Positions 5,939 through 8,129 of a stretch of 27,146 nt of DNA are shown here, piece after piece. The stretch comes from a virus (taxonomy: Duplodnaviria > Heunggongvirae > Uroviricota > Caudoviricetes). Numbering within the stretch: position 1 is the stretch's first letter; each line of letters opens with the position of its first letter. Below the pieces are notes generated by a model. It was not told where the DNA came from. It did no database searches and was given only the letters and a program-made list of their open reading frames with translations. The stretch lies in IMG/VR virus record IMGVR_UViG_2531839485_000010, one strand, 5' to 3'. The translations under genes were made by a program, and so were the position numbers.

Positions 5939-6187
5939 ATGGCAAAGGGTGTGTCAATTTCTCCAACTACGGTAAGAATCCCTGAATCTTTACGCGAGGC
6001 TCTTGCTGTCAGAGCATCAAAAAATGGTCGCTCTGTTAACTCCGAGATCGTCATGATTTTGCAAGCCGCGATTGATGAAGATAGGTCGCCAAAGTCAGTT
6101 GAGTCATTTGCTCAGCAAGAAGCTGACAAATTCAAAGAGGCGCTGCTTGAGACGCTGAAAACCATGTATGGTAAGGATGCAAAATGA
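5939..6187 (+). CDS. mnt: Mnt-like ribbon-helix-helix repressor
   Basis: 82 aa; the N-terminal RHH segment RIPESLREALAVRASKNGRSVNSEIVMILQAAI resembles P22 Mnt (83 aa) and is followed by a helical C-terminal region. Divergent from arc as in P22 immI. Confidence 0.8.
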   Translation: MAKGVSISPTTVRIPESLREALAVRASKNGRSVNSEIVMILQAAIDEDRSPKSVESFAQQEADKFKEALLETLKTMYGKDAK

Positions 6188-6393
6188 ATAAAAAACAGTT
6201 TATTAAGTCAACAACGTCAAGCAAGGAAGAGCTAGAGAAGGAGCTAAACTCCCTGAAATATGCTCTGTGCCTGGTTTACTCAAGACTGCCAATGGAAGAT
6301 AAAAACGCCATTTACAATGAAATGATTAGCAGCCTTGATTTTAACGATAGAGACCTAGCATCCCACCTCAACAGCTTCCGCGTCCCTGAGTAA
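6184..6393 (+). CDS. Hypothetical 69-aa protein, translationally coupled to mnt (ATGA overlap)
   Basis: Start codon overlaps the mnt stop; no recognisable motif. Co-transcription with mnt would imply expression in the lysogen. Confidence 0.45.
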   Translation: MNKKQFIKSTTSSKEELEKELNSLKYALCLVYSRLPMEDKNAIYNEMISSLDFNDRDLASHLNSFRVPE

Positions 6394-6553
6394 TTCTATT
6401 GCGGATTTGCTTCTTACGGTGGTTTAAGCTGGAGAGCTTGGCTTCTGCTTCTGATATTTGCGCATCCAGATCTTTAAGCTCAAGATCTGAAAGTCGCTGG
6501 TCAAGCAGGGTTTGATTCAACTCAATGTTGTTCAGACGTTCTTCTATGGTCAT
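6368..6553 (-). CDS. Hypothetical 61-aa predicted coiled-coil protein
   Basis: Strong SD AAGGAG 5 nt before the ATG. Overlaps the 3' end of the 69-aa ORF convergently, so one of the two may be spurious. Confidence 0.4.
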   Translation of the reverse strand: MTIEERLNNIELNQTLLDQRLSDLELKDLDAQISEAEAKLSSLNHRKKQIRNRITQGRGSC

Positions 6554-6566
6554 GATTACTCCTTAT

Positions 6567-6594
6567 AAAAAACCCACCTGACGGTGGGTTTTAT
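6567..6594. terminator. Bidirectional intrinsic terminator (A6-CCCACC-tgac-GGTGGG-TTTTAT)
   Basis: Perfect 6-bp GC stem flanked by an A-run and a T-run; lies just 3' of the 6597..7583 gene on the minus strand and 3' of the mnt operon on the plus strand. Confidence 0.6.
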
Positions 6595-6596
6595 AA

Positions 6597-7583
6597 TTAG
6601 ATTTCTGGTTTTATTCTTCCAAAAACCTTTTCTATTCCTTTTTCGTATTCTTCTCTTGTCTCGCTCATCGCTGCGACACCAAGAAGCTTACCGATATGCT
6701 GACGCAAAGCCTTGACACCAATTTCAGAAAGGAACAGGTGCAACTTATCAGATTGTTTTCCGTTCTCGTCTCGGCTGGCTCGAATCTGTTCAAGGATTTT
6801 ACCTTTACTCTTTGCTAGCGGAGTGTATATCTGCATGTTGGTTAGTTGCCCAAAACGAATTGGACGTCCTTTCTCTGGCCTGTTCAGGCCGTACAGTCGA
6901 TACCACTCCTCATATAGCTCATCTGGAAATTCCTTTTCATACTGCCTCGCCTCTTCACGAACAAAGGCCTTGAAGGAATCAATAACCTCCTGTACTTCAG
7001 GTCGATATCCTGCAATAGCATAACCAAGTCCTTTAAGCCCTGCTTTCATTGATGCGGTAACAAGTCTTTGGGCAAGGCTGGCAGATTTTGATCTTGAAGG
7101 CGGTAGTGCGCCAGCTCGATCGGCATTAATCATTGCTGTGGCTATATCACCAATAAGGGCAATATCGTAACCGTGAGCCTCATCAGCGAGTGGATTTGGG
7201 GCTGAGTTTGGGACCGGACTTCTCCATTGAAAAATAAGAGGTTTTTTGAATTTTTCTAGCAGAAATGGATCAACAAAATCAGCCATATAATTCGTATTTA
7301 GAAAACGGTCTACATCCCTACCATGCTCACCGATTCCTAGTAATTTAGCCAGACCAGTTTTACTAACTACAACCGTTTTATCATTATCATCAAGTACGTA
7401 ACATTCTGCATCAATGCCGAAATCATCAATGAAGTTACCCTTTCTGATCGCTCTTAGTGGCTTACCTTCCCATCGTTTTGCCGCTGCTTTCTTTGCTATT
7501 TCAGAACGCTGCTCTTTAGTCAGCGACTTTGCGCGAGCGATACCGCCCTTAGCTTTCCCTTCGCCACTTTTCTTTTCAGTCAT
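6597..7583 (-). CDS. Hypothetical soluble protein (about 328 aa) with a Lys/Ala-rich basic N-terminus; accessory (moron) gene of unknown function
   Basis: Long ORF with coding-like composition. Probable start is the internal ATG at 7583 (MTEKKSGEGKAKGGIARAKSLTKEQRSEIAKKAAAKRW...) rather than 7658. I tentatively recall similar proteins annotated as P63C-domain proteins, but cannot confirm this without a search. Confidence 0.6.
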   Translation of the reverse strand: MTEKKSGEGKAKGGIARAKSLTKEQRSEIAKKAAAKRWEGKPLRAIRKGNFIDDFGIDAECYVLDDNDKTVVVSKTGLAKLLGIGEHGRDVDRFLNTNYMADFVDPFLLEKFKKPLIFQWRSPVPNSAPNPLADEAHGYDIALIGDIATAMINADRAGALPPSRSKSASLAQRLVTASMKAGLKGLGYAIAGYRPEVQEVIDSFKAFVREEARQYEKEFPDELYEEWYRLYGLNRPEKGRPIRFGQLTNMQIYTPLAKSKGKILEQIRASRDENGKQSDKLHLFLSEIGVKALRQHIGKLLGVAAMSETREEYEKGIEKVFGRIKPEI

Positions 7584-7676
7584 AATGCAAGCACCTTTGT
7601 TGTGATGTATGCTTGCATTATATGCACTGTACACACATACAAGCAAGCATAAAACCAAAACAAAATGCTTGCATTA
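7583..7676. promoter_or_regulatory. Operator-like repeat array between divergent accessory genes: four copies of the TAATGCAAGCA / TGCTTGCATTA motif in alternating orientation
   Basis: ATAATGCAAGCAC at 7583-7595; ATGCTTGCATTA at 7609-7620 and again exactly at 7665-7676; degenerate AAGCAAGCATAA at 7641-7652. Confidence 0.5.
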
Positions 7677-7739
7677 CAACCGCGCTACTCCAACTACACA
7701 TTATCATCTGGTATCCTGCACAAAACTAAGGAGGTTGGT

Positions 7740-8129
7740 GTGAAGCAATTTCTTGCTGCTATGTTCTTATTCATATCTTTTGGGGCTACAGCAGAGTGCT
7801 GGGTCGTTGGAGATATGCGCGGAATAAGCTATTCAGAACGAAATAATTTCCATCCTGAAGAAGATGGTTTTAGTGGAACATTCATCATTAAGACAAGCGG
7901 TGAAGATGCTAGCATCACATATTCTGGGACAGATGCGGGCGGCATGGCTTACAAAGTATTGTCTAAAAACTCCATCATAGGAATCGGCGCGAATGGCGAA
8001 ACTCAACGCGTTATCGACTCATGGGTAATACATCCTACTGGAACAGTTTTAATGTCAAAAACCATTTCCGGTTATGGAAATATGGATTCAACCAAAGCTT
8101 TTGTTGGAAAAGTAAAAAGAAAATGTTAG
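7740..8129 (+). CDS. Small secreted protein with a cleavable signal peptide (about 130 aa precursor); accessory gene
   Basis: GTG start with SD AAGGAGG 5 nt upstream. N-terminus VKQFLAAMFLFISFGATA|EC is a typical Sec signal peptide with an AxA cleavage site; no lipobox. Transcribed opposite to the late operon, at the position where P22 carries sieA. Confidence 0.55.
   Translation: MKQFLAAMFLFISFGATAECWVVGDMRGISYSERNNFHPEEDGFSGTFIIKTSGEDASITYSGTDAGGMAYKVLSKNSIIGIGANGETQRVIDSWVIHPTGTVLMSKTISGYGNMDSTKAFVGKVKRKC

Follow-up and report, generated by a model that had tools for sequence, protein, structure and literature searches.

We analysed an accessory hotspot that a P22-like (Lederbergvirus) Salmonella prophage carries between gene 16 and mnt, located at positions 6184-8129 of the IMG/VR virus record IMGVR_UViG_2531839485_000010. 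This record, a stretch of 27,146 nucleotides (nt), is called the window in the following, and the late operon of the prophage lies on its minus strand. In ascending order the window carries ant, arc, mnt, a gene for a protein of 69 amino acids (aa) named orf69, a gene for a 61-aa protein named orf61, a terminator, a gene for a 328-aa protein of the P63C family, a divergent region, a gene for an exported 129-aa protein and the gene 16 homologue (Table 1). An initial annotation had read the four open reading frames (ORFs) between gene 16 and mnt as one lysogen-expressed cassette, with its own operator array and terminator, at the place where P22 carries the superinfection exclusion gene sieA. 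Its description of the genes is borne out: the 69-aa ORF coupled to mnt, the convergent 61-aa coiled-coil ORF, the 328-aa ORF with a basic N-terminus (MTEKKSGEGKAKGGIARAK) and the secreted protein with its signal peptide are all found where it placed them. The four ORFs do not form one cassette or system; they are three independently assorting modules.

Table 1. Features of the accessory region and their positions in the window
Feature	Position	Strand	Remarks
mnt-like ribbon-helix-helix repressor, 82 aa	5939..6187	+	Pfam Arc PF03869, E = 9.6e-11; P22 mnt position; left anchor
Module 1 (orf69 and orf61)	6184-6553
orf69, 69-aa helical protein	6184..6393	+	phrog_16466; ATG overlaps mnt stop (ATGA 6184-6187)
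orf61, 61-aa coiled-coil protein	6368..6553	-	phrog_7586; strong AAGGAG ribosome-binding site
Module 2 (P63C-domain gene with own terminator and operator array)	about 6565-7686
Bidirectional intrinsic terminator	6565..6590		CCCACC-n4-GGTGGG, T-runs on both strands; annotated as terminator in phage Emek
P63C-family gene, 328 aa, "solo" (transposase-less)	6597..7583	-	PF10546, phrog_2384; basic helix pair aa 9-38, alpha/beta domain aa 43-140, helical C-terminal part with P63C aa 205-292
Putative operator-binding helix pair	7470..7559	-	codons 9-38 (GKAKGGIARAKSLTKEQRSEIAKKAAAKRW)
Divergent region, 328-aa versus 129-aa genes			156 base pairs (bp); four ATGCWWGCAT sites inside
Site D	7585..7594	-	GTGCTTGCAT; between Shine-Dalgarno AAGG (7594-7597) and start, ends 1 nt before ATG at 7583
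Site C	7609..7618	-	ATGCAAGCAT; first two bases finish -10 TATAAT (7617-7622)
Site B	7641..7650	-	ATGCTTGCTT; contains weak -35 TTGCTT (7641-7646), 18 nt from -10
Site A, distal	7665..7674	-	ATGCAAGCAT
Module 3 (exported 129-aa protein gene)	7687-8129
sieA-type promoter and 5' leader	7687..7739	+	conserved linker
129-aa exported protein gene	7740 (GTG)..8129	+	signal peptide aa 1-18 (7740-7793), VKQFLAAMFLFISFGATA|EC
gene 16 homologue	8154-10064	-	right neighbour of 129-aa gene

Assortment of the modules in sister prophages

The best database matches to the region are Salmonella and E. coli P22-like phages, and no single record spans more than half of it, which points to a mosaic. Comparison across P22-like genomes, as proposed with the initial annotation, gave a variable locus in which the modules are shuffled. 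An identical 328-aa protein (P0001) occurs in six neighbour combinations among Salmonella P22-like prophages. It adjoins a true SieA (PF26849) in loci L005 and L009, a 161-aa lipoprotein in L006 and L007 and a transmembrane protein in L010, with no called gene in L008; on the mnt side its gene has either orf61 and orf69 or wholly different small ORFs.

The other modules travel in the same manner. In phage Emek orf69, orf61, the terminator and the 129-aa gene are present and the 328-aa gene is replaced by a 160-aa ORF and an ORF with a SocA/Panacea domain. Phage Kapi1 carries orf69 and orf61 alongside two small signal-peptide proteins, without the 328-aa and 129-aa genes. Phage 611R6 has the 328-aa gene but neither orf69 nor orf61, and its sieA slot encodes a coiled-coil protein with a transmembrane segment. 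The 129-aa protein occurs without the 328-aa gene in Emek and in five sister prophages (L098-L102).

Homology break-points were located by pairwise BLAST at 6550-6567 and at 7687/7742. The conserved linkers that join the modules are the terminator (6550-6594) and the sieA promoter and leader (7687-7742); the terminator is common to Emek, phiv205-1 and L005-L010 despite their differing adjacent genes. The P63C protein of the E. coli P22-like prophage L011 belongs to a different clade and is 52% identical overall, while the operator region and 5' end of its gene (4842-5209, against 7375-7742 of the window) are 89% identical, which implies intragenic recombination or more than one capture at this slot. 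As a whole, the region is a phage mosaic hotspot of an ordinary type. A variable slot is to be expected, since sieA is present in only 22 of 66 sequenced P22-like phages (PMC10883804).

Two further occupants were seen in passing. The SocA/Panacea antitoxin-domain ORF of Emek (L002, 3138-4011) overlaps the 160-aa ORF in the P63C slot, and the two look like a toxin-antitoxin or abortive-infection pair. The E. coli P22-like prophages L011 (6047-6583) and L004 (phiv205-1, 3088-3624) have, at the orf69 position, a gene for a ClpP-like protease (PF00574) that is coupled to mnt.

The P63C-family protein

Scanning the four proteins against Pfam, PHROGs, PADLOC and NCBIfam gave P63C and PHROG families of unknown function, in keeping with the earlier failure to match any of them to a known defence family. 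With PADLOC-DB v2 only coiled-coil noise was obtained for orf61 (PbeC 16 bits, JetC 12 bits) and nothing for the other three. In the 328-aa protein PF10546 is matched at aa 205-292 with 52.3 bits (cut-off 26.1), and the same family is matched by all 58 aligned relatives. No NCBIfam model was above its cut-off for this protein, and a search of PDB with the P63C family profile returned nothing. A serine or tyrosine recombinase catalytic domain was not found. Weak Pfam matches to Rpp20, in the helical C-terminus of 17 of the 58 members, were below threshold and were dismissed.

The most conserved part of the protein is the helix-pair motif GGxARAxxLxxxxRxxIAxKAAxxRW near the N-terminus, in which R17, R26, A30, A34, R37 and W38 are invariant among the 58 sequences; it is covered by no Pfam model. 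The AlphaFold2 model has a mean predicted local distance difference test score (pLDDT) of 73 and places helices at 11-20 and 23-37. Its alpha/beta domain is confident (pLDDT 80-92), the helical C-terminal half less so. A fold search against viral protein models ranked p63 of phage Mx8 second (E = 0.011). It was followed by many weak matches to Bro-N and "repressor domain" proteins (E = 0.2-3), which are not significant; the weak resemblance seen with this predicted model is a lead, not evidence.

The family counts 1422 matches in a clustered database and 3008 representatives in a profile search (E <= 0.001). For the scan of relatives one genome per species was taken, which resulted in 80 loci with full-length proteins (mostly about 320 aa) of 43-73% identity. 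These come from Enterobacterales, alpha-, beta- and gamma-proteobacteria, Myxococcota, Acidobacteriota, Verrucomicrobiota, Abditibacteriota and two Firmicutes families. For the P63C gene the ratio of nonsynonymous to synonymous substitution rates is 0.016 in the comparison with L005 and about 0.23 in those with 611R6 and L011; the solo genes are under purifying selection. In a neighbour-joining tree the enterobacterial solo copies form a separate clade. In a literature search the P63C domain was met only as a passing mention, in three papers, and searches including ISMhu11 and IS1 passenger or accessory genes gave nothing relevant.

A P63C gene is also carried by a siphovirus-type prophage (L012-L015, 5001-7896), between the tail-chaperone gene and a pair consisting of a CI-like S24 repressor and an ORF6N antirepressor. 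There it adjoins a secondary-immunity (antirepressor) module, as in the P22-like phages.

The operator array and promoter of the P63C gene

The repeated motifs which had been noticed in the divergent region are four ATGCWWGCAT sites within 90 bp, spaced by 24, 32 and 24 bp, in a 34-nt imperfect palindrome, and they recur upstream of homologues. It is the clustering that is non-random: nine matches with one mismatch are found in the whole window, a number reached by 22 of 100 shuffled sequences, and further operator sites across the 27 kb are not above chance. Of 81 loci, drawn from many phyla, 47 have the complete ordered array directly upstream of the gene, with the consensus ATGCAAGCAT-n12-15-ATGCTTGCAT-n20-23-ATGCAAGCAT-n12-15-ATGCTTGCAT. 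The core TGCWWGCA is nearly invariant and the spacers are kept in length only. In the 185 nt preceding the gene the motif is about 200 times denser than in the remaining flanks of about 618 kb.

The geometry of -10, Shine-Dalgarno sequence and start codon with respect to sites C and D is conserved. In the 47 arrays the last four bases of the B-C spacer together with the first AT of site C most commonly read TAnnAT (TATAAT in the window), the C-D spacer ends in a GGAG, GAGG or AAGG Shine-Dalgarno sequence, and in 29 of them the start codon consists of the last AT of site D and the G that follows it. The array has followed the gene into the unrelated siphovirus-type prophage and is also kept in transposase-less copies. 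Site B ends in CTT in the enterobacterial arrays of the window, L016-L018 and L020, five in all, and in two non-enterobacterial ones (L052, L084); in the window this variant would degrade the -10 on the transposase side.

Between sites C and D an 11-bp stem is possible, with a folding free energy (dG) of -12.9 kcal/mol (z = -3.5). Owing to alternating AA and TT centres, the pairs A/B and C/D are true inverted repeats. At variable sites, A/B or C/D pairing is lost through 69 changes, against 16 compensatory ones. An Rfam scan of the array gave no family, only spurious matches resembling microRNA precursors on the palindrome. In L006 and L007 a 44-bp deletion between direct ATGCTTGCATTA repeats (7621-7664 of the window) has removed two of the four sites and left the P63C gene intact.

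Array and N-terminal motif are absent together: the four family members without the motif (L074, L081, L085, L092) are without the array as well. In an Acidobacteria lineage an altered motif, GGEARA...A(I/V)(Q/E)ARW, goes with a different palindrome, TATACTTGCyCGGGCAAGTATA. The loci with variant palindrome and extended motif are L035, L037, L042, L043, L048, L050, L054, L055, L059 and L093.

Both the operator array and the terminator of the initial annotation are present, and they belong to the 328-aa gene only, not to a cassette. The terminator folds with a dG of -17.8 kcal/mol on the minus strand and -15.4 kcal/mol on the plus strand (z = -4.5 and -4.1). It would end the transcript of the P63C gene and probably also that of mnt and orf69.

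Linkage of the relatives to IS1-family elements

The 328-aa gene, which the initial annotation had counted in a candidate undescribed phage-encoded system, is not specific to phages: the family spans phyla and is found mostly as the second gene of IS1-family insertion sequences (IS). An IS1-family transposase adjoins the P63C gene in 45 of the 80 loci (tblastn with three transposase queries). Wherever the upstream region of such a locus was read, both genes were seen to diverge from a common control region. Pfam DDE_Tnp_IS1 was above its cut-off in all four transposases tested. Among three tested with NCBIfam transpos_IS1 (cut-off 100), one reached 101.9 bits and the other two stayed below, at 60.7 and 62.3. 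Some of the transposases carry an InsA-type zinc finger.

Complete elements could be delimited. One Kaistiaceae genome has four copies of a unit of 2519-2521 bp, at least 99.9% identical and with different flanks, ending in the inverted repeats GGTGGTGCATCAGTTTGAA / GGTAGTGCGTCAGTTTGAA and flanked, in two copies of the four, by 8-bp target duplications. Units of 2.3-2.9 kb in which GGTAGTGnnTCAGTTTGA inverted repeats enclose the transposase and the P63C gene were found in at least ten lineages. Taken over all these elements, 8-bp target duplications flank five copies (L044, L067, L073, L077, L078). Such elements are carried by L076, L077, L078 and L094 (locus 2973-5493), together with L023, L027, L041, L044, L067, L072, L073, L090 and L095. 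Eight of ten units inspected carry a convergent ORF of 75-83 aa in the tail of the element. The C-terminus of its product repeats the KGG-ARA...RW motif and is similar to the N-terminus of the 328-aa protein of the window (E = 1.6e-7).

The transposase gave no tblastn match in the window or in any enterobacterial locus. A search for IS ends in the window gave one match to GGTAGTGnnTCAGTTTGA with three mismatches, at 7102-7119 in coding sequence, no more than expected by chance (19 of 100 shuffles). Treating the P63C copy of the window as part of an IS was therefore rejected: it is without adjacent transposase, terminal inverted repeats and target duplication.

The exported protein in the sieA slot

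Positions 7709-7742 are 100% identical (34 bp) to the leader, Shine-Dalgarno sequence and GTG start of P22 sieA, which puts the gene of the secreted protein exactly in the sieA slot. The proposed replacement of sieA stands for this gene and falls for the 328-aa gene, an extra module that is able to coexist with sieA. SieA of P22 is a multi-helix membrane protein that blocks DNA entry by P22-like phages (PMC10883804). By position the 129-aa protein takes the place of SieA, as its gene lies between gene 16 and mnt behind the P22-identical leader; by sequence it has no Pfam match, PF26849 included, and with its single, cleavable signal peptide it is modelled as a soluble barrel.

The mature part of about 111 aa is modelled with confidence as an eight-stranded beta barrel, possibly stapled by a disulfide. 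Cys20, Cys129 and the mature part are conserved, and the signal peptide occurs in two versions. Only 22 clusters among 5.8 billion proteins contain the protein, nearly all from Salmonella and E. coli. No sequence family was matched in Pfam or NCBIfam, and a profile search of PDB gave only noise. A fold search with the barrel returned a generic fold whose top matches are functionally unrelated (5-14% identity). In the annotation of Emek the protein is likened to Sf6 gene 38, a similarity that was not reproduced by tblastn at E <= 1e-5.

All other occupants of the slot are envelope proteins: an inner-membrane protein, a lipoprotein, and transmembrane or signal-peptide proteins. In L098-L102 a signal-peptide homologue of Rap1a (locus 3650-3985; PF18602, 55 bits, cut-off 27.7), a family of immunity proteins against type VI secretion amidases, is encoded directly upstream of the 129-aa homologue, giving an operon of mnt, Rap1a and barrel genes. 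The 129-aa protein of the window itself has no match to Rap1a/Tai4 (PF18602). Slot and leader, envelope proteins as alternatives and the Rap1a neighbour make a periplasmic protective role the best guess.

The genes next to mnt

Translation of orf69 is coupled to that of mnt. The orf61 gene is convergent with orf69 and overlaps it by 26 nt at the 3' ends. Near-identical copies of orf69 are found in Emek and Kapi1, and copies of orf61 with 98-100% identity in Emek, Kapi1 and S.Kent 1-2-1; both are rare, with three to four almost identical phage records. In L010 diverged homologues (43% identity for orf69, 35% for orf61) keep the convergent, overlapping arrangement, which argues that the two are real genes and functionally paired. 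No domain was matched in either protein with Pfam or NCBIfam. A type II toxin-antitoxin pair is not recognised here: there are no toxin or antitoxin domains, and the genes are convergent, not co-directional.

Further to the left, ant (4509-5438, minus strand) has an in-frame nonsense codon at 5280-5282 (CAG to TAA, codon 53) compared with the intact ant of L006, which is 95% identical. The ant product is probably inactive in this prophage.

Discussion

The explanation which we prefer, with a probability of about 60%, is that the region consists of three assorting modules, among them a self-repressing P63C gene and a gene for a Sec-exported periplasmic barrel. In this explanation the basic helix pair of the P63C protein would bind the four ATGCWWGCAT operators. 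Site B holds the -35, site C abuts both -10 and transcription start, and site D lies between ribosome-binding site and start codon, so that occupancy would shut off the P63C promoter, and the protein would repress its own gene. This geometry, together with the co-occurrence of motif and array, offers indirect support for self-repression. The transposase cannot be the required binder, since the array is retained in transposase-less copies. In most other phyla the array sits between the P63C gene and the divergent IS1-family transposase gene. The intergenic region there is symmetric, B and C each being able to supply the -35 for one promoter and to abut the -10 of the other, so that occupancy would repress both genes alike, as Tn3 resolvase does at res. 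The solo copy of the window would presumably serve the prophage through its central and P63C domains.

The 129-aa protein would be expressed behind the sieA promoter and leader, leave the cytoplasm by Sec and fold as a small beta barrel in the periplasm. Its most probable role is in lysogenic conversion, by binding or inhibiting something coming from outside, for which the ejection or peptidoglycan-cutting machinery of a superinfecting phage and a peptidoglycan-hydrolase toxin are candidate targets. The promoter logic and the orientation of the genes would fit expression in a lysogen, as the initial annotation had suggested. Defence or superinfection exclusion, which it had also named, is a possibility and would be most plausible for the secreted protein.

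Several points weigh against this explanation. The consensus promoter scan missed the P63C promoter, because its -35 is weak (3 of 6 matches), and no promoter was found for orf61. The case for binding of the array by the P63C protein is one of co-occurrence, and the co-variation of motif and operator could be mere shared ancestry. With 328 aa in three domains and 44-50% identity across phyla, the protein is far larger than a repressor needs to be, which leaves its main activity unexplained. As the enterobacterial solo copies form a clade of their own, transfer may have gone from IS to phage or from phage to IS. The predicted beta-barrel fold of the secreted protein is generic and points to no ligand.

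Adjacency in a known hotspot, a lysogen-compatible direction and the lack of any housekeeping or virion match would suit a single anti-phage or envelope-modification system of all four ORFs. That is extremely improbable given their independent assortment in sister prophages, the lack of a PADLOC match, and a P63C gene with what appear to be its own promoter, operators and terminator which occurs in many phyla without the other three. A role of the motifs as RNA or single-stranded DNA hairpins (A with B, C with D) that control translation or termination, in place of protein-binding operators, draws on the C/D stem, which would bury the start region, and on the alternating centres that make each pair a true inverted repeat. 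However, the stem sequence itself is conserved across phyla, no Rfam family is matched and the conserved -10 at the edge of site C puts the transcription start inside this site, leaving the RNA without the 5' arm. With 69 broken pairs against 16 compensatory changes, recognition by a protein is favoured over RNA structure, and the hairpin reading, a very improbable one, was rejected on this pattern. The P63C protein could instead be a site-specific recombination or resolution factor, an analogue of Tn3 TnpR acting on a res-like array with repression as a side effect. A transposase gene, a multi-site inverted-repeat array and an outward accessory gene do mirror tnpA-res-tnpR, the A/B and C/D pairs are inverted repeats of about 34 bp like a res subsite, the 44-bp deletion in L006 and L007 runs exactly between two direct-repeat sites, and the protein is much larger than a simple repressor. 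IS1 can form cointegrates, which would need resolving. This reading is improbable; no recombinase catalytic domain was found in the protein.

The P63C protein of the prophage might also be a DNA-binding anti-phage or abortive-infection effector, like BstA of the P22-like phage BTP1, whose array only limits its level. The toxin-antitoxin-type pair in the Emek slot, a stand-alone, probably autoregulated gene under strong purifying selection in prophages, and the weak structural resemblance to Bro-N and "repressor domain" proteins speak for it. It is compatible with a self-repressing P63C gene, yet unlikely in view of a family that is mainly IS-linked, which points to mobile-element biology, and of a protein that matches nothing in PADLOC and has no recognisable toxic or enzymatic domain. 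The 129-aa protein might, on a further reading, be an orphan immunity protein, directed at a lysozyme or at a peptidoglycan hydrolase of type VI secretion, and not a factor of superinfection exclusion. This is a possibility to be kept in mind, though a doubtful one: the fold matches are generic and functionally unrelated, no sequence family is matched, and the gene has the exact slot and leader of sieA, a proven exclusion gene (PMC10883804).

The assortment shows the gene 16-mnt region of P22 to be a three-slot exchange site and not the place of a single cassette. It offers two candidates: a periplasmic beta-barrel alternative to SieA, and a putative autoregulated DNA-binding protein that can sit beside SieA. 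An uncharacterised Pfam domain gains a context as the conserved second gene of IS1-family elements of 2.3-2.9 kb. P63C protein and array would make up an unreported protein-operator pair that crosses phyla and is mostly carried by such elements. The 10-bp sites, in a control region joint with the transposase, are near-invariant from Firmicutes to Acidobacteria and Proteobacteria, a depth that is unusual and makes the pair easily testable. More tentatively, and with considerable doubt, protein and array could belong to a distinct lineage of the IS1 family as a module for regulation or recombination that spans phyla and has not been described before, having a resolvase/res role that controls or completes transposition. 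P22-like and other enterobacterial prophages would have captured it as a stand-alone gene with expression in the lysogen. The captured module could then act in lysogens against incoming mobile DNA with the same sites, or against other phages. All functions proposed here are deduced from sequence. The IS context raises the question of what use a large accessory protein is to an insertion sequence that is otherwise minimal, and why it is retained in prophages that lack the transposase.

Comparison with known systems

In P22 the sieA/immI region (gene 16 - sieA - orf59a - mnt - arc - ant - gene 9) has the same gene order and orientation, with mnt, arc and ant to the left, and the terminator of the window lies at the t_mnt position. 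It differs from the window in having sieA, a polytopic inner-membrane protein gene, where the window encodes a soluble exported beta barrel and has no SieA homologue, and in having orf59a where the window has orf69/orf61. The window has in addition the P63C module between the slot and the mnt module.

Rap1a/Tai4, the PliC/MliC-type lysozyme inhibitors and T4 Sp resemble the 129-aa protein in being small, Sec-exported and cysteine-containing, and PliC-type inhibitors share the eight-stranded barrel fold class with its model. These periplasmic immunity and inhibitor proteins have no sequence homology with it, and Rap1a is all-alpha. BstA of BTP1 and the Bro-N/KilA-N antirepressors are, like the P63C protein, encoded by a single prophage gene and have what would here be an N-terminal DNA-binding region followed by a helical C-terminal domain. 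The P63C protein has no sequence-family match to KilA-N, Bro-N or BstA, and the structural matches are not significant. The domain PF10546 was named in Pfam after p63 of Myxococcus phage Mx8, and its description, as far as found, is without the full-length architecture of about 320 aa, the operator array and the IS1 linkage.

The IS1-family relatives share with that family the IS1-type DDE transposase, the InsA-like zinc finger plus helix-turn-helix, terminal inverted repeats starting with GGT and 8-bp target duplications. Classic IS1 is about 0.77 kb and encodes InsA and InsB only, whereas the relatives measure 2.3-2.9 kb and have two extra conserved genes, one for the P63C protein and one for the 75-83 aa protein with its motif. 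Compared with tnpA-res-tnpR of Tn3, the transposase of the relatives is of the IS1 family, the accessory protein lacks a serine-recombinase domain and the window has no transposase. What the relatives have in common with Tn3 is a transposase gene and a gene for an accessory, putatively DNA-binding protein, divergent from inverted-repeat sites that lie over both promoters, and from this arrangement co-repression of the two genes is predicted.

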